This document shows, piece by piece, positions 17,920 to 64,000 of a DNA stretch of 64,000 nucleotides (its first letter is position 1; every line of letters starts with the position of its first letter). Source of the DNA: Candidatus Omnitrophota bacterium (GTDB lineage: Bacteria; Omnitrophota; Gorgyraeia; JABMRG01). Position numbers and translations under genes: made by a program. Location: the NCBI GenBank assembly GCA_028716165.1, contig JAQUQI010000001.1, forward strand, positions 126,538 through 190,537. The letters are read 5' to 3'. Under the pieces are notes generated by a model that saw nothing but the letters and a program-made list of their open reading frames with translations, did no database searches and was not told the DNA's origin.

Positions 17920-18390
17920 CTACCTCTTAATACAGGTATTGCACAAACCGTAAAACTGGATCAAATGATTCGTGATCTTAAAATCATATTTTTGTGACAG
18001 GCCTTTTTCTGTTTGATTAAGCAACTCAACCTCCTCATCGATAAAATCGGTATAATTGATAACACGGTTGCATTGCGTGCATATCAAATGATGATGGTGA
18101 TGACTGCCCTTAGGCCCCTCTGCTAACTCATATCGCGCTCTTTTATCGCCAAAATCGAACTTAAAAACCAGGCCTAATCCAGCTAAAACCTCCAATGTCC
18201 TATATATCGTAGCCAATCCAATGCTGGGACATTTAGGATGCGCTTCCATATAAATATCTTCCGCGCTTAAATGTTTATCTGATTTGGAAAGCACTGCCAA
18301 TATAGCTTCCCTGCCGGGCGTTATTCTATAACCACACCCTCTAAATTTGCCATGCCACCATGGCGCACCAGCACAATTTCTTCTTGGCAT
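17920..18390 (-). CDS. fur: Fur-family metal-responsive transcriptional regulator
   Basis: It has a winged-helix N-terminus, an HHHHH run and C-terminal CxxC...CxxC pairs (CTQC, CNTC). Confidence 0.85.
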   Translation of the reverse strand: MPRRNCAGAPWWHGKFRGCGYRITPGREAILAVLSKSDKHLSAEDIYMEAHPKCPSIGLATIYRTLEVLAGLGLVFKFDFGDKRARYELAEGPKGSHHHHHLICTQCNRVINYTDFIDEEVELLNQTEKGLSQKYDFKITNHLIQFYGLCNTCIKR

Positions 18391-18505: not shown

Positions 18506-18985
18506 TTAAAGTTTAGTACGCTTGGGGATTTTTCCGGTCTTGAAGTGTTTATCAATCCAGCCGCTTTTGACCTTATCCCGACTGTCGAAGTGTTTTACAT
18601 ATGGTTTGACATCCAGAAGCGGGGTACCGTCTAACATGTCAACCTCTGAAAAAACGATGGTGTCCCTCTTAACGCTTTTGATTTTGACGATCGAAAATCC
18701 TATATGGTTCGGCCTATGAGGACTGCGTATCGCGAATATTCCGTGTTCTGTATCTTCAAGAAACGGCCTGCCGGTAAGCCTCTCTTCTTTTGAGCGGTTA
18801 AAATGATAGATCAGAATAAGATGCGAAAACCCTTCGATATCCTTTAAGCCAGCTTTGTATTTACGAAACAATCTAATGGTACCAACAACTCCCCGCTTGA
18901 ACTTACCCTGAATGGGTATGCCTTTGGGTTCTTTATACGGTGTATTAATGATGCCTATCGGCTTGATTGTAATAGACTTTTTCAT
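18506..18985 (-). CDS. tsaA: tRNA (adenine37-N6)-methyltransferase TsaA/TrmO (YaeB family)
   Basis: GIFAIRSPHRPNHIGFSIVKI and GTPLLDVKPY are YaeB signatures. Confidence 0.85.
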   Translation of the reverse strand: MKKSITIKPIGIINTPYKEPKGIPIQGKFKRGVVGTIRLFRKYKAGLKDIEGFSHLILIYHFNRSKEERLTGRPFLEDTEHGIFAIRSPHRPNHIGFSIVKIKSVKRDTIVFSEVDMLDGTPLLDVKPYVKHFDSRDKVKSGWIDKHFKTGKIPKRTKL

Positions 18986-18986
18986 C

Positions 18987-19307
18987 TTAAAAAGTCACTA
19001 CCTTATCAGATTCTTTTACGATGTCGTACATATCCTTCATGGTAGAGATCGGGCACATCTCAAAGCCGTCTTGCCCTCTAGATTTAATACAACTCCCACA
19101 AGCGTAAATCTTCCCGCTAGACTGCATGAATTTTTCCGCCTGCTCAACGGTGTTAAATTTATCCGTACTGATCTTCTGATACTCAACTCCCTTGCCCATA
19201 AAGAAGATTTTGACCTCATCTTTCTGCCCAAGCGCGAAATTGGCGTAACGGATCGCGTTCCAGCAGGTTTCAGCGTCATTGCTTGAAATAACTATTCCGA
19301 TTTTCAC
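18987..19307 (-). CDS. DsrE/DsrF-like family protein
   Basis: It is 106 aa with a KIGIVISS N-terminus and a conserved Cys pair (YACGSC). GTG start with a GGGAGGGG ribosome-binding site. Confidence 0.55.
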   Translation of the reverse strand: MKIGIVISSNDAETCWNAIRYANFALGQKDEVKIFFMGKGVEYQKISTDKFNTVEQAEKFMQSSGKIYACGSCIKSRGQDGFEMCPISTMKDMYDIVKESDKVVTF

Positions 19308-19440: not shown

Positions 19441-19922
19441 TTATGTTATTGGCCTTAGTGTCAAAATTGTAAAAAAACCGGATAATTCTTTTTTGAGGAT
19501 TTCATAAAATTGGTCTTTAGCCTTTTCTTCAATCCATGGTTTATGCCCGCAATTTTTTAGTAGAATAAAACAAAAATCTCTGATTACTCTGTTGAGAGGC
19601 TCCCTTACTCCATCGGGCGGATGAATATAGACCTTCAAAATAATAGAATTTAGGCTGTTGTTCCTGTCATGATTACCCTTAATGAAGATGAACTTGCCAT
19701 TCAGCCTCTCTTCAAATTGCCGAGACCTCTCTAGACCGCCCTCATTGCCCCTTTAAATATAAAATCACCGAGAAAAAAGACAGTATCCTCCGGCTTTACG
19801 CGCTCATTATGCTTGCGAATAATGGTCTCATTCATCCCCTCGGCCGGGTCAAACGGATGATTGTAGTACCTTATGATAAAGGCGCGCGTAAAGTGATAAT
19901 CCGATGTCCGCCAGTAGTTCAT
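19441..19922 (-). pseudogene. calcineurin-like metallophosphoesterase, disrupted by a frameshift near 19740
   Basis: The N-terminal ORF (...SDYHF...FFLGDFIFKG) stops at 19731. The family-typical continuation (...FIFIKGNHDRNNS...HPPDG...) is open in another frame from about 19745 and joins the 19441..19638 ORF. Confidence 0.55.
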
Positions 19923-19947: not shown

Positions 19948-21279
19948 TTAGGTTTCGGCTATACCTTCTTCAGCCAAAAGCCATTTCCAGAGAGGCATGG
20001 TCTTCACGGTAAAGCCGTTCAGTTTCTCTTCGCCTTCCGCGTCCTCGGTGATGATTACCGCTTTATCAGTTTCCAATTCTTTCATCGCCTTCTGAAGGCT
20101 CCGCAGTTCACGTTTTTTTGTTTTCTCGTCTCGCATGTTCCAGCAAACCTGAATCAAACCCGTTACATTCAATCCGTCTTTGATAACAAAATCAACCTCA
20201 TGATGCTGAACGTCTTTCCAGTAAAATAATTCAACGCGCGGATTAACGATTTGTTTTCGTTTAAGAGCCATGAAAACAATATTTTCCGCTAACCGCCCGA
20301 TATTATCAGAAAACCTAAATCCTACTGAATTACATAATCCTGTATCAATCGCGTAAATCTTACGGGGACTTTTTTGTTGCTCCTTCACCTTGAACGAAAA
20401 CCTCTTAAGTTGAAATATAAGATAAACATCCTCAAGATAACTTGAAAATTTATCAATTGTATCCGACGTTATGTCAAGATGTTTTGCAATCGAAGTAAAA
20501 GTCATAAGATTTCCGGCATTGCTCAGATAATACTTGATTAACGCCTTCATTGCCTTGGTCTTCCTAACACGGAATCTTTTTATTAGATCCTTCGATACAA
20601 GGTCATCAAAATAATTCAATAAAACCTCTGTTTTTTTATCTGACAAGCTAACCTCAGGAAAAGATCCGTTCTCCATATATTTTCGGAAATGCCCCATTAT
20701 TTCAGTTTTTTTTCTGTCTACGTCAAGCGGTGCTTTAATTTCTATATTGTAAAACATTAAGTATTCTGTAAACGAAAGAGGAAAAACACAAAGATCGATA
20801 TGTCTCCCTGTTAATAATGTTCCAAGTTCACGGCTAAGCAAATGAGCGTTTGATCCAGATACAATGATTTTAGCTTTTTTAAGCTCATGCATCATACGCA
20901 CCCATTTTTCCCATTCATCGATTTCCTGAATCTCATCAAGAAAAATATACGGCGTATCAGTAGGAGACATGAACTCTCGATAAACGTCATATATTTGAAT
21001 CAATAATTTATTATCGAGCGTTAAGAATCTGGGATCGTCAAAATTGATAAAAAGTATGTTTTCCTTTTTTACGCCCTTATCCGCCAGAAGCCTTCCCATT
21101 TGGCGCATGATATATGACTTTCCTGCCCGCCTGGGACCGGTTATAGTTATTACTTGATTGGATCCTTTAATAAGCCCTTCCAATCTATCAATATAGGAAT
21201 TTCGCATAAGCCCTATATCTTTTTGACCAGCCCACTCATTCCAACTATCTAATATGTCGAATACCTCTTTTTTCTCCAT
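19948..21279 (-). CDS. AAA-superfamily ATPase with DUF4143 C-terminal domain (COG1373)
   Basis: It has the Walker A GPRRAGKS, a Walker B ILFINFDD/FLDEIQE and the usual C-terminal nuclease-like region. Length is 443 aa. Confidence 0.85.
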   Translation of the reverse strand: MEKKEVFDILDSWNEWAGQKDIGLMRNSYIDRLEGLIKGSNQVITITGPRRAGKSYIMRQMGRLLADKGVKKENILFINFDDPRFLTLDNKLLIQIYDVYREFMSPTDTPYIFLDEIQEIDEWEKWVRMMHELKKAKIIVSGSNAHLLSRELGTLLTGRHIDLCVFPLSFTEYLMFYNIEIKAPLDVDRKKTEIMGHFRKYMENGSFPEVSLSDKKTEVLLNYFDDLVSKDLIKRFRVRKTKAMKALIKYYLSNAGNLMTFTSIAKHLDITSDTIDKFSSYLEDVYLIFQLKRFSFKVKEQQKSPRKIYAIDTGLCNSVGFRFSDNIGRLAENIVFMALKRKQIVNPRVELFYWKDVQHHEVDFVIKDGLNVTGLIQVCWNMRDEKTKKRELRSLQKAMKELETDKAVIITEDAEGEEKLNGFTVKTMPLWKWLLAEEGIAET

Positions 21280-21390
21280 TAGAATTCCTCCTATTCGGCA
21301 TAATTATCTAATTTTGCCTATTACAATGTAAAATATACGTCAAAATTAGCATTTTGTCAATGCTTTTCTTTAGCGGAGCTATAAATCCCT

Positions 21391-21700
21391 AATGTTCACT
21401 AAGTAGTGAACATTAAATGTCCACTGTTTAGTGGACATTTCAAGGTAATGGACATTTAGCATGGTCCCAGCACCCCTCTTTCTCCAAATTTCAATATAAA
21501 CCTTTTATTTTATGGCATTTATATCAAGAATACAGGCAATTCTTGTCAGAAAAACTATATACTTTTTCTGACAGGTTGTCGCAAATAGTGCATACATTTT
21601 GCGACAAGAGATAGCTGGCTAAATGTCCACCGGCCGGGAATGTCCACTATTTATGAGACATTTCGATTTGGTGGACATTTACATGTCCATCAATGTCCAT
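21391..21700. repeat. non-coding array of AATGTYCAC / GTGGACATT palindromes and half-sites plus two further perfect inverted repeats
   Basis: There are two perfect palindromes at 21391-21414 (AATGTTCAC-N6-GTGAACATT) and 21415-21440 (AATGTCCAC-N6-GTGGACATT), and two further perfect inverted repeats at 21544-21573 and 21577-21608. Six more half-sites lie between 21621 and 21700. Confidence 0.6.
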
Positions 21701-21968
21701 CAAAAGGCCTTTTTTGGCTCTCCCGGACGCCTTCAGGATACCCCTAAATCGCCTGCTCACCCCATTAGAAATACCCCCTCAATCCTTAACATCAATTTCT
21801 AACGGGGCAAAACCGACACTCCCTTCCAGGGACACTAAATAAATCAAGCTATAGGCGATAGGCTATACACGAGGCCATAGGCTATAGGATTTGTCCCTAT
21901 CGCCTACTCTCCCTCAACCGCCGCGGCAAGCTCGGTCACAGTGTAAAGACGCTCCGCGATACAGCTTT

Positions 21969-23030
21969 CTATTTTTTCCGTTGTTTTTGAGGGCAAGCTT
22001 CTGCCGCTTGTTCCAAGAAATAATTCAATGTATTTTCCAAAGATACTGCAAGCTTCACGGAAGGCTGCCAGCCTAAAAAACGGCGGGCATTGTTGATGCA
22101 GGGTTTTCTGTGCAAAACGTCTTGATACCCTTCTCCATAAAATGTGCCGCCTACTACATACTTCAGGCCGGCAAACTTAGGGAACATATCGCGCAAAGGA
22201 TGAGATTTGAATTTTTTAACGAGCATTTGAGCCAGTTCTTTGATGGTGAACTCATTATCTGGATTGCCGATATTGAATATTTTGCCTGCGCAAACATTGT
22301 TCTTGTTTTCTATTATCCCGCGCAAACATGCTATACCATCAGATATATCGGTAAAACATCTTTTCTGCCTTCCGCCGTCAACGAGCAAAATGGGCTTTCC
22401 TTCCACAAGGCTTAAGATAAGTTGAGTAACTACGCGTGAACTTTTTTTTCGCGCGGACTCCAACCCGTCTAATCGCGGGCCTATCCAGTTAAACGGCCGG
22501 AAAAGCGTGAAGTTGAGCTTGCCCTGCTTCCCATAGGCCCAAATAACCCTATCCAAAAGTTGTTTACTGCATGAATATATCCAGCGCTGCATCCTGGTTG
22601 GCCCAAGCACGAATTCCGAATTGTCTTCGTCAAATTCATCATCTTTGCACATGCCATAAACCTCTGATGTTGAAGGAAAAACAAGCCGTTTTTTATACTT
22701 GGCACAATACCGCACAATCTTAAGGTTTTCCTCAAAATCAATCTCAAAAACCGAAAGAGGCCTACGCACATATTCTATTGGAGTAACTAATGCCGCGAGA
22801 GGTATAATTATGTCGCTGGCAGAAACCTCTTTTTCTACCCATCGCTGTTTTACCCTTATGTCCGCCTGCTTAAAATGAAACCGCTTGTACGCACAAAGCC
22901 TATCTATGTTAAAGGAATTCACATCAATTCCCGAAATTTCGTTATCGCTCGTGCGCAGGATATTTTCAGCCAGCTCATTACCTATAAAACCGTTTACCCC
23001 GATAATAAAGATCTTCTTTCTCTTTCGCAC
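21969..23030 (-). CDS. NAD-dependent sugar-nucleotide oxidative decarboxylase, ArnA C-terminal-domain-like (UDP-glucuronate decarboxylating)
   Basis: It has a GVNGFIG Rossmann fold, and [11 protein letters not shown]...[31 protein letters not shown] closely matches ArnA_C. Confidence 0.8.
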
Positions 23031-56616: not shown

Positions 56617-59600
56617 TTACGCGGCTTTTTGCATTGCGCTGTTTCTATTTTTAAGGTTTCTAAGATTTGCAGGATTAATTCTGCTGCTTTTTATATCAAC
56701 AGCAGGCGCTGTGACCGTGGTTTCTTGTGGAGTCATCAACGTGTCAGGCGTAATGCTTCTCTGGGCATTAGCAGATGATAATAATCTCATAACAGCTTTT
56801 TCAAGAATCAGGCTTGAGCGCTGCTTTTGCTGCAGCCTCTGCAAAACAGGAAGTGCCCTTATATCTTCTATTCTGCCTAATACTTCAGCAAGGCCTTCCA
56901 TCTGGCTGAGACTGTTGGTCTTTTCTATTGTATCTAGCAAAACAGGGACTACTGCTTTCCCTTTTTCGGTTAGCTTCTGTATGGCTTTTTGCCTTTCGAC
57001 TAAAGCAAAGTTATTTTCCCTGGTTTGTTTTTTCTGCATTATATCAATATATGCATAAGAGCTCCATGGCCCCGCAGCTTCAGGCGCTTTTAATTCTTTT
57101 CGCAGGATTGAAGATAATTCTACTGACAGCCTTGATAAATCCTCAACCCAAACACCATTAGGATAAACCTTTCCCACTTGTTTAGCCTCCGGACCAATGC
57201 CTATACCAAATATTTTTATTCCTTTGGCTTCGCTAAATAATTTTTCTAATTCTTGCCTTTCCTGTGTTTCAGGCCTATCGGGATTACCATCTGTAATTAC
57301 TATAAGCATATCTTTATCGGTTCTTTTAAGGTGTTTCATTCTCTCAACTGCCTTGGCAATACAACCAGCATCAAAACGTGTATCTATACCTACGTTAGCT
57401 TCAATACCTTTAACCGTTTCAACTGCCTTCTTTCTTGTAACTCTCTCACCCAGCTTTTTAAATGGCAGATAGGGTGTGCGGTCATTAAAAATAGCGATTT
57501 CAAAATCAATGCCCGGGATGTCTTTTAATGCTTCCATCAAAAGAACGGTCCCTTCAATCGCTCTTTTGTATCTATTGGATTCGCGCTTCATACTATAACT
57601 TCCATCGATTAAAAGAACTATTCTATAATTAAATTTACCTATCTTAAGATTGCGTTGGAATATCCTGTCCGTGCCAGAAGGGATTTCTACTAAAGCATTG
57701 GGATCAATATCGCCAAAGGAACGGCTTGTTTGCATTCTATCTCTGGCTGTTTTTTGCAACACCATCAAAAGGTGCCTTCTTAAAACCAGAATAAACGGTT
57801 TAACAGCCCTAAGGTATACTTCATATTCTGCATTTTCGGCTCCTGTTACACCACCTCTTGAGATTTTTTCTCCTTCTAAAATAGCTTTTGCTTTTTCGCT
57901 TCTCTCTCCCAGGGTTTCTTTTGAGCCATCTGATTCGTCCGCAGCTTCAGCCAAAGCTTCCTTTAGTTGTTTGGCTCCTTTTTCGAATTGTTTGCTATAA
58001 GATTTCTCTTGAACAGTAAGATCTTCTTCGGGAAGCGTAGGGTTAGGAACCATTTTACCTTTAAATTCTTCATTGAATTTCTTTTCAGCCTCTTGCGTTT
58101 GGTCAACTGCAAGATTAGCTAACTCTTGCAGTTCTTCAGGTGTCATTTCTTCTAATTCTTTTTTTATTTTTTCTTGCAATTGCTCTTTTAGATCTTCTGG
58201 TATCTGATCCATAGGTAATGGTTTTCCGTTTTTATCAAGCACCTTATCTCCTAATTGTCCTTTTCCTGCCATCTTCTGCATCATATGATTGTTAATAGCA
58301 TTATCTTTTACTTCTTCGATTAGTTTTTCATATACGGGCCAGATTCTATCGCGGATTATTTCATAGCTTTCTCTAGAGCTCTCTGTAGAATAAGCAGCAA
58401 CAATATCTGGTTCGCATTGCTTAAGGGCGTCGATTACCCGCTGATTGGAAATCCTTGGATCATCTTCCCCCTTAAACCATTTATATATCAATCCATAACC
58501 AAATTGTAGATGCAGCGGAAGAGATTGAAATGCAGGCCTTTCTTCTTCTAAATTCTTAGTGTCATATCTTTCACCATATAACTTTTTAATCCATGGTCCT
58601 GCACCTCGATATCTTTTTATGCCAATATTATTTACACGCGAGTCTTCTATAGGATTAAGCAATGTAAAAAAGGAGCGATTTTGCCTGAATTCTTCATCCA
58701 TAACATCAGGATCGCTAAAGATTACATGCCATACTTCGTGCATGGTAATGGCTGAAGGTATATCTGCGTCTTTGTGCTCTAAGTCCTCAGGGAGATATTG
58801 AATCTGGTTTAATCCAAAAAGATAGCGCCAAGTCCTCATTGTATCATCTGGGGCCATTTGCTGCCAAGGAAGCATTTTTAATACTGGATTACTAGTAATA
58901 ATTCTAGCAAGGCCTTCCAGTAGTTGCAAAAGTTGTCGTGAAACATTAGAAGATTTATTAGAAGATTGTGAACTTGTTGGGTTTACCATATTAAACGGAA
59001 TGATTTTATTTTGATGCACTATAGGCGGAAATATAAAATTAGCTGTCGGTTTTTCGGGAGAAGATTTTTTACCTGTCAGTCCATACACCTCTAGTACCTT
59101 ATCAACCATTCCTTGGGCATTATCATTGATATATTCTAAGTTATAGGCTTTCTTAACTATAATTGCAATATCATCTTCTGGATAAATATTAAGGTGTCTA
59201 GCAATTCTTACTAAAGCTCTAGTAGAAAGCGGCCGGGGTAAAAGCCCATTTTTATAGGCAGTACGCAAATCAGTAGCAACTCTAATTAATTCCTTAAGCC
59301 GTGATACTTTTACTTTAGGCGCATATTTTTTTAAGACTATTATTTCTTCCTGTTCGGGTAAATACTCAATAGTATGCATACTAAATCTATCTTCTAATTC
59401 CCCTGATAATAGATTACCTATATAAGGGGGCCTGGGCGGGTTCATGGTAGCAAAAACTCTAAAATCTGGGTGAGCAGTAACTACCTCGCCATTTGGCAGG
59501 GTTACTTGTCTAAACTGGAGTATGTTGTTGAGGCTGGATAACACTCCTGGCTGAACCCTATCTATTTCATCTAAAATAATATAGGTGCCATTTCTCATTG

Positions 59601-62600
59601 CTTCAACCAAGACCGAGTCTGACCAGTTGGTCTTACCTTCCTCTTTTTCTCCAAAAGTCTGCCTGACTAAAAGGTCTTTTACGTCCGTATCTTCATTTAA
59701 TGACATAACCTTACACTCACGATTTAGGAGTTTGGCTAGATACAATACCAGAGAGCTTTTACCTGTGCCTGTTTCACCGACCAAAAGTGTGTTTTCACCT
59801 AAGATAACATCTTTGAGGAGTTCTTTGAGATATGAAAGGTTGGTAAGGGTGTGCTCTAATTCTATTTGCGGTACATACAAACCATCTTGCCCTCTAATCA
59901 TTTCCACATTTCCTATAGTTAAGTAGTCTTTCTGTTGATGATTAACTGTTTTAACCTTTACCTCGATACTAAGCTGCTGTGTAATCGGGTCATGGCCAGC
60001 TTCTAGGGCGCGGTTTCTCAAATCTTCTCCGGTTTGAGCATCTATTAGCCGCTGGTCTTTTGCGATATTCCAAACTTTAGCTACATCATCAAAGCCCCCT
60101 GAAACTATTTTTTCTTCATTTGGTGCAAAAGAAACCGAAGCTGCGGTACCTGAATGCGCCTGTAATGTTTTGGCTTTATTATGGACTATATCCCATATTT
60201 TAACTATTCCTTGTTCATCACCAGAAGCAATATATCCCGTATTAGACATTGACACAGACCAAACAGAACTGGTGTGGCCTCTTAATGTCTTTACTCGATT
60301 AGTTCTCAAATCCCATACTTTAACTGTTTTATCCATGCTCCCTGAAATAAGCATGTTCCCATCCCCTGAAAAAGCCAACGGCCCAACTGCGCCACTATGC
60401 CCACTTAATATCTGAACTCTATTGGTTCTTAAATTCCAAACTCTAATGACACTATCCCAACCCCCTGACGCAACAACTTCACCATTAGACGAAATAGCTG
60501 TTCCTTCTAACTCTTTTTCGTGACCGCTTAAAATCCGCACTCTACACGTGCTTAAATTCCAAACCCTAACTGTTTTGTCTCTGCTTCCAGTAACTAAAAA
60601 ATTTCCATTTTGAGAAAAACCAATTGTGCCAAGTATACTGTCTGTATGGCCTTTTAATACTTTGAATGTTCTATTTTCTAAATCCCATACTTTTAAACTG
60701 CCGCTAGGTCCTGCTGAAGCTATATATCTGTTATCAGGTGAAATAGCTATTGCCCAAATTTCAGTACCTTGATCCCCTAACGTATTGATTTCGTTTGTTT
60801 CTAAATTCCATAATTTTAATTTGCTATCTTTGCTTCCAGAAACAATCAAACCACCATCAGACAAATAAGCAACTGACATAACATCGTTGCTATGACCCTG
60901 AAGAATTTTTTCAATTTCAGTAACTGATATTCTTTCATCAGAAACAATTCTATCGGAGGAATTAACTTGTGGAGTAAAATTTGTTTCTTCTGCGTCATAG
61001 TTCTTTTCTTCTGGTGAAAAAGCCGATTCCTCTGGCGTAAAACCTATTTCTTCAGGTGCAAAATCCTGCCAAGGAGCTAAATTAAGCGGCAAGTTAGAAT
61101 CATGCTGAGCGGATTGAAGCACCGGCATAGTGGTTGTTTTGGTCTTTGCAAATTTATAAGGCTGTAATGCCTTTTCTACAGATGCTTGAGCGTCTATATT
61201 CAGGTATTCCAGATTGTAGGCCTTTTTAATAATAGCCATTACGTCATCGTGTGGGTATACTTCTAAATGCTTAGCTACTCTCACTAAGGCACGCGTAGAT
61301 AATGGCCTGGGTAAAAATCCCTGCTTATAAGAAAATCTTAAATTGTTAGCAGCATCAACCAATTCTTCCAGGACAAACTTGTCAACACCTGGTGCGTGAT
61401 TTTGCAAAACTGCAATTTCCTCTTCTTTGGGGAGATAGTCAATAGAGTAAATTGAAAATCTATCTTCTAATTCACCTGATAATAAATTCCCTGTATAAGG
61501 TGGTCTGGGAGGATTCATAGTGGCAAAAACTCTAAAATCTACATGAGCATCTACTACTTCTCCATTAGGCAATACGACTTGGCGGAATTGTAAAATATTA
61601 TTCAATACTGAAAGAACTCCTGGCTGAACCCTGTCTATTTCATCTAAAATAACATAATCTCCATTTCTCATGGCATCAACCAATACTGAGTCCGACCAGC
61701 CTGTTTTACCTTCCTCTTTTTCTCCAAAAGTTTGCCTTACAAGCAGATCTTTTATGTCTGTGTCTTCGTTCAAAGACATAACACGGCAACTACGATTTAA
61801 CAATCTAGCCAGATAGAGAACTAAAGAACTCTTTCCAGTGCCTGTTTCTCCTACCAGTAAGACATTTTCATTAAGAATAACATCCCTTAAAATATCTCTT
61901 AAATGGTTGATATTTGTATTTGTCTGTTCCAAGTCTATGCTTGGAACAAAGGATCCATCCTGGCCACGGTCATATGTTAGATCATCAATAACTAAAAATT
62001 CTTTATCTTGATTATCTATGGTTTTTTCAATAAAACGAATTCTCTGGGAAATTGTTTTTAATGAACTATATAATTCTAAAAGTTCTCTAACAGCTATTTC
62101 TTCTGTTCTTATAGTATGCATATGTTCTTCTGCGGATTGAAGCTCTGACTCTAATTTATCAATAGCGCCTCTTAAAGTATCCTTCACAATCTGAGCACCC
62201 TCGTGCTCTGCCTCAACATAGCTCAATCTTAACTCATTGAGAAAAGATGTCTTTTCACCTTTAATCTTTTCTGCTTTTTGTTTTTTTACTCCGCAATGTT
62301 CTAATTTTTTTTCGGCTATCTTTTCTGCCTCTTCTATAGTATCCTGATGGCCTATTTCTTCATATAATTGCTTTGCTGCTACTGATTGGGCGCTAATTAT
62401 ATTTTCTGCGCGTGTTGATAATTCGGCTTTTGTTTTTACCTCCACTTTCTTGGTTAATCCATACACCTCTAAAACTTTTTCCACTATTAGCTGCGCATCT
62501 GCATTAAGATATTCTAAATTATAAGCTTTCCTAATTGGAACATTAATATTTTCTTTAGCATACATGGCTAGATGTCGTACAATTTTCACTAACGCACGCG

Positions 62601-64000
62601 TAGATAATGGCCTGGGTAAAATTCCCTGCTTATAAGAAGCCCTTAAGTCGCTTGCTACATTAACTAATGATTCTAAAATTGCTTTATTGACATTTGGTGC
62701 ATAATATTGCAGCACAGCTATCTCTTCATCTTTAGATAAGTACTCAATAGTATGCATACTAAATCTATCTTCTAATTCCCCTGATAATAGATTACCTATA
62801 TAAGGGGGCCTGGGCGGGTTCATGGTAGCAAAAACTCTAAAATCTGGGTGAGCAGTAACTACCTCGCCATTTGGCAGGGTTACTTGTCTAAACTGGAGTA
62901 TGTTGTTGAGGCTGGATAACACTCCTGGCTGAACCCTATCTATTTCATCTAAAATAATATAGGTGCCATTTCTCATTGCTTCAACCAAGACCGAGTCTGA
63001 CCAGTTGGTCTTACCTTCCTCTTTTTCTCCAAAAGTCTGCCTGACTAAAAGGTCTTTTACGTCCGTATCTTCATTTAATGACATAACCTTACACTCACGA
63101 TTTAGGAGTTTGGCTAGATACAATACCAGAGAGCTTTTACCTGTGCCTGTTTCACCGACCAAAAGTGTGTTTTCACCTAAGATAACATCTTTGAGGAGTT
63201 CTTTGAGATGAAGTCTATTTGTAGGAGTTAAAGGTAAATTTATGTTAGGAACAGAGATATCCCCTCTACCTCTTTCAAATTCTAAATCATCTAACTTAAG
63301 ATACTCTATGCCATTTTTATTTTGAATTGATAGATCTTTATCTCTTGGCAATGCAGATTTTTCTAAGCCTAAGGCAGAAGAACTATCGCCTGCTTGCCAA
63401 ATTATAGCAAATTTATCCAGCCATCCTTGATCTACTGGAAAAATTGAAGGTGGGGCATATCGCGAATCAACTTGGCTTAAAGAAACAATATATTCTTTCT
63501 TATCTTTTCCTTGTATCAAAAGATGCAACAAATCACCAAATTTCTCTATAGTAATAGGCATCGATTTAATAGAAAAGAATTGATATCTATTCCTATATGC
63601 TTCTTTAAGTTGTGTAAAATTAGAAATTAAGCCGCTTAACCAGACCTCTCTGTAATCATAAAGCTCTGCATATGCCTTGACCCCTCTAATCACCCTATCA
63701 AAGATTTCTTTTGCTTCTTGTTCTGTCTTTACTGGAAATTCTTTGGAAACCGCGAGACCTTGTGCTGCTTCCCATGGCACTTGAATTGCATCAACTATTA
63801 AGATGGGCGCAGGATCTTTACCCTGCTGTTTTTTTATTGCAGAAATAACGTAAGCGTTCCCAATCCATGTATCTCCTTTCATAATCTTAAAGTTCAAGAA
63901 CGCAGGATCTAATATATGCCTGGGAGTAGTGTATTTAAATTTAGGGGACTTTGGATTGGTAGAGTCACCACTAATATTGCCTCTGCTTAAATCTTCTTTG
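56617..64000 (-). CDS. giant multidomain protein (>2,460 aa, N-terminus beyond the window): 3x MoxR-like AAA_5 ATPase, 7-blade WD40, HExxH metallopeptidase-like plus VWA/MIDAS (DUF2201-like), C-terminal HEAT-like repeats
   Basis: The ORF is open from 56617 to the window edge, and the track's start at 63897 is a TTG with an open frame upstream. It has three Walker-A LLVGETGTGKSSLVLYLA modules at about 63.2, 61.85 and 59.78 kb, each followed by DEIDRVQPGVLS and ATMNPP. Seven WD40 blades lie at about 60.13-60.90 kb. The HEVWH motif is at about 58.74 kb, and MIDAS LLIDGSYSM...ITDG at about 57.2-57.64 kb. The C-terminus has HEAT/PBS-like repeats. Confidence 0.8.
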   Translation of the reverse strand, partial: KEDLSRGNISGDSTNPKSPKFKYTTPRHILDPAFLNFKIMKGDTWIGNAYVISAIKKQQGKDPAPILIVDAIQVPWEAAQGLAVSKEFPVKTEQEAKEIFDRVIRGVKAYAELYDYREVWLSGLISNFTQLKEAYRNRYQFFSIKSMPITIEKFGDLLHLLIQGKDKKEYIVSLSQVDSRYAPPSIFPVDQGWLDKFAIIWQAGDSSSALGLEKSALPRDKDLSIQNKNGIEYLKLDDLEFERGRGDISVPNINLPLTPTNRLHLKELLKDVILGENTLLVGETGTGKSSLVLYLAKLLNRECKVMSLNEDTDVKDLLVRQTFGEKEEGKTNWSDSVLVEAMRNGTYIILDEIDRVQPGVLSSLNNILQFRQVTLPNGEVVTAHPDFRVFATMNPPRPPYIGNLLSGELEDRFSMHTIEYLSKDEEIAVLQYYAPNVNKAILESLVNVASDLRASYKQGILPRPLSTRALVKIVRHLAMYAKENINVPIRKAYNLEYLNADAQLIVEKVLEVYGLTKKVEVKTKAELSTRAENIISAQSVAAKQLYEEIGHQDTIEEAEKIAEKKLEHCGVKKQKAEKIKGEKTSFLNELRLSYVEAEHEGAQIVKDTLRGAIDKLESELQSAEEHMHTIRTEEIAVRELLELYSSLKTISQRIRFIEKTIDNQDKEFLVIDDLTYDRGQDGSFVPSIDLEQTNTNINHLRDILRDVILNENVLLVGETGTGKSSLVLYLARLLNRSCRVMSLNEDTDIKDLLVRQTFGEKEEGKTGWSDSVLVDAMRNGDYVILDEIDRVQPGVLSVLNNILQFRQVVLPNGEVVDAHVDFRVFATMNPPRPPYTGNLLSGELEDRFSIYSIDYLPKEEEIAVLQNHAPGVDKFVLEELVDAANNLRFSYKQGFLPRPLSTRALVRVAKHLEVYPHDDVMAIIKKAYNLEYLNIDAQASVEKALQPYKFAKTKTTTMPVLQSAQHDSNLPLNLAPWQDFAPEEIGFTPEESAFSPEEKNYDAEETNFTPQVNSSDRIVSDERISVTEIEKILQGHSNDVMSVAYLSDGGLIVSGSKDSKLKLWNLETNEINTLGDQGTEIWAIAISPDNRYIASAGPSGSLKVWDLENRTFKVLKGHTDSILGTIGFSQNGNFLVTGSRDKTVRVWNLSTCRVRILSGHEKELEGTAISSNGEVVASGGWDSVIRVWNLRTNRVQILSGHSGAVGPLAFSGDGNMLISGSMDKTVKVWDLRTNRVKTLRGHTSSVWSVSMSNTGYIASGDEQGIVKIWDIVHNKAKTLQAHSGTAASVSFAPNEEKIVSGGFDDVAKVWNIAKDQRLIDAQTGEDLRNRALEAGHDPITQQLSIEVKVKTVNHQQKDYLTIGNVEMIRGQDGLYVPQIELEHTLTNLSYLKELLKDVILGENTLLVGETGTGKSSLVLYLAKLLNRECKVMSLNEDTDVKDLLVRQTFGEKEEGKTNWSDSVLVEAMRNGTYIILDEIDRVQPGVLSSLNNILQFRQVTLPNGEVVTAHPDFRVFATMNPPRPPYIGNLLSGELEDRFSMHTIEYLPEQEEIIVLKKYAPKVKVSRLKELIRVATDLRTAYKNGLLPRPLSTRALVRIARHLNIYPEDDIAIIVKKAYNLEYINDNAQGMVDKVLEVYGLTGKKSSPEKPTANFIFPPIVHQNKIIPFNMVNPTSSQSSNKSSNVSRQLLQLLEGLARIITSNPVLKMLPWQQMAPDDTMRTWRYLFGLNQIQYLPEDLEHKDADIPSAITMHEVWHVIFSDPDVMDEEFRQNRSFFTLLNPIEDSRVNNIGIKRYRGAGPWIKKLYGERYDTKNLEEERPAFQSLPLHLQFGYGLIYKWFKGEDDPRISNQRVIDALKQCEPDIVAAYSTESSRESYEIIRDRIWPVYEKLIEEVKDNAINNHMMQKMAGKGQLGDKVLDKNGKPLPMDQIPEDLKEQLQEKIKKELEEMTPEELQELANLAVDQTQEAEKKFNEEFKGKMVPNPTLPEEDLTVQEKSYSKQFEKGAKQLKEALAEAADESDGSKETLGERSEKAKAILEGEKISRGGVTGAENAEYEVYLRAVKPFILVLRRHLLMVLQKTARDRMQTSRSFGDIDPNALVEIPSGTDRIFQRNLKIGKFNYRIVLLIDGSYSMKRESNRYKRAIEGTVLLMEALKDIPGIDFEIAIFNDRTPYLPFKKLGERVTRKKAVETVKGIEANVGIDTRFDAGCIAKAVERMKHLKRTDKDMLIVITDGNPDRPETQERQELEKLFSEAKGIKIFGIGIGPEAKQVGKVYPNGVWVEDLSRLSVELSSILRKELKAPEAAGPWSSYAYIDIMQKKQTRENNFALVERQKAIQKLTEKGKAVVPVLLDTIEKTNSLSQMEGLAEVLGRIEDIRALPVLQRLQQKQRSSLILEKAVMRLLSSANAQRSITPDTLMTPQETTVTAPAVDIKSSRINPANLRNLKNRNSAMQKAA
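59363..59831. repeat. 469-bp intragenic direct repeat, copy A (AAA module 3)
   Basis: By eye alignment it matches 62741..63209 base for base. The identical antisense ORF prefixes 59585.. and 62963.. in the track corroborate this. Confidence 0.8.
62741..63209. repeat. 469-bp intragenic direct repeat, copy B (AAA module 1)
   Basis: It is identical to 59363..59831. The middle AAA module (about 61.3-61.9 kb) is similar in protein but diverged in DNA. Confidence 0.8.

Follow-up and report, generated by a model that had tools for sequence, protein, structure and literature searches.

What is a dense array of palindromes and half-sites doing in 310 bp of non-coding DNA upstream of an ATPase gene in a 301-kb contig of a metagenome-assembled Candidatus Omnitrophota genome? 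The array (21391-21700) lies in an intergenic region (21280-21968) of the 64-kb stretch of DNA analyzed here, hereafter the window, between the ATPase gene and a gene for an NAD-dependent epimerase (21969-23030, minus strand). The initial annotation had described two back-to-back palindromes, a series of half-sites and two hairpins, all of which we located. Their layout differs in two details: the palindromes, given as 9+6+9, are really 10-4-10 (AATGTYCACT-N4-AGTGRACATT), and the loop of the second hairpin is 12 nt rather than 11. The region is non-coding, as had been stated, with only two mechanical ORFs (59 and 49 aa) overlapping it.

We consider it likely that the array consists of stacked promoter-operator modules that derive from type IV toxin-antitoxin cassettes of the AbiE family but lack the genes. 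The half-sites, AATGTCCAC ("C") and AATGTTCAC ("T"), would be recognized by ~225-aa antitoxin-regulators of two specificity classes, both with a winged helix at the N terminus and an AbiEi_2 domain at the C terminus. By analogy with characterized AbiEi antitoxins, binding to four half-sites that cover the -10 element, ribosome-binding site (RBS) and start codon would shut off the regulator's own operon. Two 30-bp palindromes would be the corresponding promoter-operators of DUF6088/AbiEii cassettes. In the Omnitrophota contig, the modules appear to have lost their genes and -35 elements and would sit at an accessory-cassette junction, just 5' of the independent promoter of a PDC-S01 ATPase.

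Half-sites cluster in one intergenic region

Five exact copies of AATGTCCAC occur in the window, all within 21416-21679 and none elsewhere in the 64 kb, where 0.29 ± 0.56 are expected; none of 100 shuffles reached five. Another four copies with one mismatch lie inside 21391-21700, and 9 of the 13 window matches at one mismatch or fewer fall within these 310 bp. The clustering is far above chance. Read toward the ATPase on the minus strand, the array runs from a far-upstream segment through two extra half-sites, a four-site C operator, a GC palindrome, an AG palindrome, a spacer and a three-site C operator to a T palindrome (Table 1). On the ATPase side of the T palindrome follow the gene's own -35 and -10 elements, a leader repeat and the ATG at 21279.

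Table 1. Features of the array and the adjoining ATPase gene, in window coordinates
Feature	Position	Strand	Comment
ATPase gene, AAA_14 + DUF4143 (Pfam)	19948-21279	-	Downstream of the array
ATPase 5'-leader inverted repeat, GGCAAAATT-AGAT-AATTATGCC	21297-21318	-	Just 5' of the RBS
ATPase sigma-70-type promoter, TTGACA-17-TATATT	21332-21360	-	Outside the operator array
Palindrome AATGTTCAC-TAAGTA-GTGAACATT	21391-21414		
T-type palindrome, the same read as AATGTTCACT-N4-AGTGAACATT	21391-21414	.	Matches the inner two half-sites of the putative TTCAC-class AbiEi_2 operator
Palindrome AAATGTCCAC-TGTTTA-GTGGACATTT	21415-21440		
Half-site (T)AATGGACATTT	21446-21457		
Proximal C-type operator, AAATGTCCAT-N7-AAATGTCCACT-N4-AGTGGACATTT	21415-21458	-	Three half-sites
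Spacer segment	21459-21543	.	Travels with the proximal operator and hairpin 2
AG palindrome, TGTCAGAAAAA-N8-TTTTTCTGACA, centre CTATATAC	21544-21573	.	Predicted DUF6088-type promoter-operator core
GC palindrome, TTGTCGCAAA-N12-TTTGCGACAA	21576-21607	.	"GC" variant of the predicted DUF6088-type promoter-operator
Distal C-type operator, → → ← ←	21620-21681	-	Four half-sites; layout of the putatively autoregulated C-class AbiEi_2 operator
Distal half-site AAATGTCCAC	21621-21630		
Distal half-site AATGTCCAC	21639-21647		
Distal half-site GAGACATTT	21655-21663		Degenerate
Distal half-site GTGGACATT	21671-21679		
Extra upstream half-site ACATGTCCAT	21681-21690	-	
Extra upstream half-site AATGTCCAT	21692-21700	-	
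Far-upstream segment	21701-21755	-	Conserved in C-class AbiEi_2 promoters

The ATPase has a conserved promoter of its own

In PADLOC, the ATPase hits PDC-S01 (E = 1.4e-119), a candidate single-gene defence system, a result that backs the earlier description of DUF4143 ATPases as defence-associated singletons. Its relatives at 60-90% identity bear names from several phyla, and about 30 close-relative loci were retrieved for upstream comparison. The only upstream features common to nearly all of them are the sigma-70-type promoter and the leader inverted repeat: TTGACAAA stands 80 or 81 nt 5' of the ATG in all but two loci examined, array or no array. Across phyla, the TTGACAAA…TATATT promoter hardly varies. 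Across 16 diverse PDC-S01 loci, 81% of cells in the leader repeat are paired, compared with 26-54% when the repeat is slid, and five of nine pairs carry double, that is, compensatory, changes; RNAalifold gave no consensus for the leader. The repeat may form a stem-loop in the 5' UTR, or it may be the true operator of the gene.

The closest relatives (L015-L021, ATPases 83-89% identical) keep the promoter and leader and have neither palindromes nor hairpins, and most other relatives likewise keep both features without an array. The sites are thus no constant companion of the ATPase, and the initial suggestion of a heavily autoregulated ATPase promoter finds no support in these loci. Upstream palindromes or hairpins occur among the ATPase loci only in the window, L012-14, L027-L030 and L032, where the ATPases of L012-14, L027, L030 and L032 are 65-82% identical to that of the window. 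In the window, L012-14, L027, L030, L032 and apparently L040, the -35 element is preceded by a C- or T-type palindrome at a distance of ~27-80 bp, so that six or seven ATPase lineages have a palindrome 5' of the promoter. The intervening sequence varies in length and content from lineage to lineage. Many short-read ATPase contigs (L004-L011, L002-L003 and L015-L016) break 100-330 bp upstream of the start codon, as would be expected if the upstream modules were repeated in those communities or genomes.

The half-sites accompany AbiEi_2 antitoxin genes in other genomes

One genome from each of 185,579 species was scanned for the exact 10-4-10 pattern (AATGTYCACTNNNNAGTGRACATT), and the comparison loci used below were ascertained on that pattern. 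It was found in 82 genome stretches and three viral contigs; chance would give 2-4 of the 82, a rough estimate from base composition. Most of the stretches are from Omnitrophota, Planctomycetia and Elusimicrobia metagenome-assembled genomes (MAGs), assignments that binning may have distorted. A tblastn search with the window's ATPase gave no significant match among the 85 palindrome loci, which argues against the array being this enzyme's own operator. The sole match below 1e-4, in L071 (22% identity over 125 residues), is no close relative. L040 is the only palindrome locus that matches the ATPase promoter and leader, and it does so at the cut end of the locus. The array sites are probably not operators of the ATPase itself.

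Clustering of ORFs beside the palindromes identified ~225-aa proteins as the dominant family. Four representatives (three typical members and the long L066 variant) match Pfam AbiEi_2 at 28.1-49 bits against a curated cut-off of 21, and they show weak MarR_2-, TrmB- or LexA-type winged-helix matches in the N-terminal ~60 residues. The search for a cognate HTH regulator that had been recommended for this array therefore did yield a candidate, an AbiEi_2-domain winged-helix family, in other genomes. In at least 21 loci, four half-sites (→ → ← ←) lie over or immediately 5' of the -10 element, RBS and start codon of the ~225-aa gene. A nucleotidyltransferase gene lies downstream of it in 15 of 21 loci; this partner matches Pfam NTP_transf_8 (E = 1.6e-9) and not the canonical DUF1814/AbiEii family.

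The upstream regions of these genes are regular. A typical one reads TTGAC(T/A), half-site, N8, half-site, N6, inverted half-site, N8 with AGGA, inverted half-site, with the four sites of gene-bearing loci spaced → 17 nt → N6 ← 17 nt ←. The T-type palindrome overlaps the -10, RBS and ATG of TTCAC-class AbiEi_2 genes in 13 loci. Much of that class has its -10 element over half-site 2 and its RBS in the gap from site 3 to site 4, with the ATG adjoining site 4; TCCAC-class genes have the -10 over site 1, followed by a longer leader.

Operator variant and protein group co-vary without exception. Proteins behind TCCAC operators (n = 9) form a single clade, are at least 68% identical to one another and carry GRARAA in an aligned N-terminal stretch. 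Those behind TTCAC operators (n = 13) belong to other clades, and 12 of the 13 have SLG(M/L)A at the same position. Identity between the two groups reaches 52% at most, and one MAG (JAUYOH01) has a gene of each class (L085 and L117). The N-terminal stretch that differs is presumably the DNA-binding part. We infer these protein-DNA assignments from position and co-variation, and on that footing the earlier reading of the array as an operator array for a dimer- or multimer-binding HTH protein gains support. AbiEi is reported to act on inverted repeats in its promoter and so repress the operon that encodes it; Rv2827c of M. tuberculosis binds four repeats overlapping its own promoter (PMC7319586). 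The four-site arrangement of the AbiEi_2 loci fits this published autoregulation and the Rv2827c precedent.

The 30-bp palindromes resemble DUF6088 promoters

Second in frequency among the neighbours of the palindrome comes a DUF6088 protein of ~199 aa (Pfam E = 8e-47; AbiEi_4 is a further, weak match), whose gene is followed by an AbiEii toxin gene. The AbiEii partner is present both in DUF6088 cassettes (E = 3e-38) and in AbiEi_4 cassettes (E = 5e-40). Fourteen of 18 DUF6088 clusters share the arrangement cTTGACA-N3-TGTCNNAAAAA-N8-TTTTTNNGACA followed by an RBS and ATG, with a TATACT-like -10 element in the centre; three of the remaining clusters are near-matches, and in the last the ORF is a fragment. 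Judged by sequence, the window's TGTCAGAAAAA…TTTTTCTGACA and TTGTCGCAAA…TTTGCGACAA match as the AG and GC variants of this putative promoter-operator. Both have perfect or near-perfect stems of 10-11 bp and loops of 8-12 nt. The AG palindrome retains the central TATACT and, as read from the sequence, is missing the TTGACA -35 element usually found three bases upstream; the centre of the GC palindrome (TAGTGCATACAT) is degenerate. L095, L103 and L110 contain hybrid palindromes whose two arms are unlike; these and the promoter geometry favour a DNA palindrome bound by protein over an RNA hairpin.

The window carries the modules without their genes

The intergenic region is a mosaic whose blocks are 77-95% identical to modules in different MAGs. 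The block next to the ATPase (21280-21415) is 95% identical to L040; for the following one (21414-21573), identity is 83% with L061, 81% with L105 and 77% with L084. The tandem AG/GC pair (21543-21607) shares 89% identity with L074, and the distal operator block (21620-21755) shares 88-89% with L049 and L106; part of the latter (21681-21755) is also 79-89% identical to L064, L091, L098 and L099. In an alignment with the gene-bearing L098 and L064, which keep both, the window and L049 are missing a ~52-nt -35/spacer segment together with the gene. The proximal C-type operator has no -35 or -10 element of its own, and the T palindrome is missing the outer half-sites of the TTCAC-class operator.

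Within the 64-kb window, neither coding sequences nor remnants for AbiEi_2, DUF6088 or nucleotidyltransferase proteins were detected, and a tblastn search of 21250-22000 for fragments of the three returned only spurious ORFs overlapping the repeats. The modules of the window are therefore orphans: inverted repeats lie over or just 5' of the promoter and start region of an abiEi-like gene in 21 related loci, whereas the window has no such gene.

Gene-less composites recur and their half-sites are conserved

Such orphans are not confined to the window. Gene-less composites with both C and T sites occur in 20 other loci, and the window's proximal C-type operator aligns with those of 16. They often precede a DUF6088-type palindrome and a block of toxin-antitoxin or defence-like genes, among them DUF6088-AbiEii pairs, an XRE gene with a DUF4062/HATPase_c_4 protein gene, RadC, metallophosphoesterase and Fic. 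Their borders are sharp: at least 20 unrelated sequences follow GTGAACATT(AG), and flanks are unrelated on both sides in 17 aligned loci. Among nine composites found through the T palindrome or the window itself, the half-sites outside the search pattern (the C sites and the first T site) are 92% identical in pairwise comparison, against 45% for the spacers and 27-30% for the flanks, a contrast perhaps inflated by an alignment anchored on the motifs. That half-sites are conserved while spacers drift suggests that the gene-less sites are selectively maintained and may be targets, in trans, of antitoxins whose genes lie elsewhere in the genome. Alternatively, orphan sites may simply be scars of cassette turnover.

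A broader role for the composites is conceivable, although we rate it as rather unlikely. They would be maintained, horizontally spreading elements through which antitoxins act on neighbouring cassettes, breakpoints at which cassettes are swapped, or both. As elements, they might let an antitoxin insulate, co-repress or be titrated by neighbouring defence and toxin-antitoxin cassettes, for example. Alternatively or additionally, as preferred breakpoints they would mark where cassettes, PDC-S01 included, are exchanged in Omnitrophota, Planctomycetota and Elusimicrobiota genomes.

Other explanations of the array

The array might still regulate the ATPase, either bound by the enzyme itself or as a target through which AbiEi_2 proteins from elsewhere control the PDC-S01 promoter. 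A palindrome 5' of the conserved -35 element in several ATPase lineages, and half-sites in gene-less composites that look selectively maintained, speak for this; the recurrence in particular leaves room for a functional link, or for AbiEi_2 control of the ATPase promoter in trans. However, the nearest relatives and most others dispense with the array, and the stretch from palindrome to -35 is not the same in different lineages, a sign that the two came together independently. The sites also lie upstream of the -35 without overlapping it, co-vary with AbiEi_2 clades rather than with the ATPase, and in none of the 85 palindrome loci accompany a significant match to it. We regard regulation of the ATPase as unlikely. 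Decidedly unlikely, in our view, is a small non-autonomous MITE-like element, with the C/T composite running from AAATGTCCA to TGAACATT, which are inverted repeats of each other, and with decayed copies in the window. The MITE-like relic proposed in the initial annotation captures real features: the units are gene-less and mosaic, have discrete borders with unrelated flanks, and share blocks at 77-95% identity among MAGs assigned to several phyla. Yet no obvious target-site duplication was seen in the few flanks compared by eye, and no transposase was found among the recurrent neighbouring gene clusters inspected. The supposed terminal repeats are fully accounted for as operator half-sites that look maintained, length variants differ by whole half-site units, and AbiEi_2 genes have identical sites as what appear to be functional promoter-operators.

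The same borders could mark recombination sites for the exchange of accessory and defence cassettes, integron-like or recombinase-mediated, with the array as a cassette junction. Similarity between loci does stop right after GTGAACATT(AG) or GTGGACATTTA, and co-oriented cassettes (DsrE, TrmO, methyltransferase, a PBP-transpeptidase-domain gene, metallophosphoesterase, RadC, Fic, AbiE pairs and PDC-S01) recur beside the modules in varying order. But sharp borders are equally expected if binding sites alone are under selection, the recurrent neighbouring gene clusters inspected include no integrase or recombinase, and the repeats, by reading, are without attC architecture (the AAC…GTT arrangement), which makes this very improbable. 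Integron attC sites proper were rejected on that last ground. A structured small RNA or transcription terminator encoded by the hairpins and repeats is exceedingly improbable. The two stems invite the idea, and a search for a small RNA had been recommended, but nothing in the whole window matched Rfam at the gathering threshold and no terminator-like site was predicted. The hybrid palindromes of L095, L103 and L110 have mismatched arms, and because the palindrome of gene-bearing loci spans the spacer, -10 and start region, one arm only would be transcribed. The window also contains no tRNAs. A partition or origin-like site, another early proposal, has no adjacent Rep or Par gene (the neighbours being the epimerase and the ATPase), and cumulative GC skew is monotonic across the window. 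TGTCCAC resembles the actinobacterial DnaA box, TTGTCCACA; a DnaA-box cluster was rejected, as the canonical box is not enriched, the skew is monotonic and the sites track AbiEi_2 genes. Fur- or PerR-type sites were rejected as well: the motif moves between genomes independently of the FUR-family gene of the window (17920-18390) and presumably bears no resemblance to Fur/PerR boxes.

Sequence around the array

Directly downstream of the ATPase lies a metallophosphoesterase pseudogene (19621-19922, minus strand), frameshifted near 19746-19749 and truncated at about residue 101 of 183; the intact gene is a recurrent cassette in 13 palindrome loci. Beyond it are TrmO-like (18506-18985) and DsrE-like (18987-19307) genes, both on the minus strand, whose counterparts adjoin operator composites in four and six loci, respectively, of other Omnitrophota and Planctomycetia MAGs. 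From this recurrence, the entire 18.5-22 kb stretch would seem to belong to a mosaic accessory island.

On the other side, a heptad-repeat hairpin (TAGGCGATAGG … CCTATCGCCTA, 21852-21906), just after the epimerase stop codon, may be a terminator; similar heptad arrays with direct and inverted copies are found in L072, L074 and L098. A 13-bp inverted repeat, CCCCATTAGAAAT-N22-ATTTCTAACGGGG (21760-21807), appears to be another recurring intergenic module, and two similar CCCGTTAGAAAT…ATTTCTAACGGG units are present in L025, downstream of its ATPase. Relatives often carry a further module beside their operators, TGTTCTAT or CGAACA-N2-4-TGTTC (L014 at 1340-1375, L023-L025, L062, L072, L074 and L085), that is absent from the window and resembles the Gram-positive LexA box (GAAC-N4-GTTC). 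The window ends in a lower-GC stretch (0.36-0.41), which contains a 2426-aa mechanical ORF (56617-63897, minus strand).

Significance and comparison with known systems

Viewed as orphaned toxin-antitoxin operators, these modules yield testable predicted operators, one for two AbiEi_2 subfamilies and one for DUF6088. The AbiEi_2 subfamilies, separated by one operator base and a short N-terminal stretch, offer a compact system for antitoxin DNA specificity. The window also indicates that toxin-antitoxin operators can outlast their genes, apparently under constraint, at the borders of defence cassettes. If antitoxins bind the orphan sites in trans, toxin-antitoxin regulators would be wired into the control of neighbours such as PDC-S01, and the sites would be useful for marking cassette junctions in phyla that have been little studied. 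Should they be no more than scars, the result is routine genome archaeology. We believe that the half-site motif, the one-base pair of specificity classes, the DUF6088 promoter-palindrome and the conserved gene-less operator stacks at cassette borders have so far gone undescribed; a brief literature search on AbiEi, DUF6088 and PDC-S01 found nothing on any of them.

Among known systems, PDC-S01 (AAA_14 + DUF4143 / PD-(D/E)XK ATPase; PMC12988326) is matched by the window's ATPase, which is likewise widespread and horizontally mobile; it is a single-gene candidate without a described regulator. Like MITEs and REP-type repeats, the composites are short, gene-less, palindromic units with sharp borders in many intergenic contexts. 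They differ in the missing signs of transposition noted above (judged from few flanks by eye and from the recurrent neighbour clusters inspected), in repeats that would double as working promoter-operators elsewhere, and in the conservation of the putative protein-binding half-sites alone. The two 30-bp palindromes of the window match the -35-to-RBS palindrome of most DUF6088/AbiEii clusters; unlike those cassettes, the window has no -35, gene or RBS and places the AG and GC variants in tandem. To our knowledge, no operator has been described for DUF6088 proteins.

The closest comparison is with the operators of AbiEi/AbiEii type IV systems (S. agalactiae PabiE IR1-IR2 and M. tuberculosis Prv2827c IR1-IR4; PMC7319586, PMC3985639). 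There, as here, a two-domain antitoxin with a winged helix and an AbiEi C-terminal domain comes first in a bicistron with a nucleotidyltransferase, and several inverted repeats overlap the promoter, four of them in Prv2827c. The half-site here is ~10 bp (AAATGTYCAC), whereas the published repeats are 23-bp, and the sites follow a → → ← ← layout with extra upstream copies. Two specificity classes one base apart are predicted here, and the window's sites stand apart from any antitoxin gene, in one stack with the putative operators of a second family. The gene-bearing loci show the testable hallmarks of the AbiEi family except that their toxin partner belongs to a different nucleotidyltransferase family, NTP_transf_8 in place of DUF1814.
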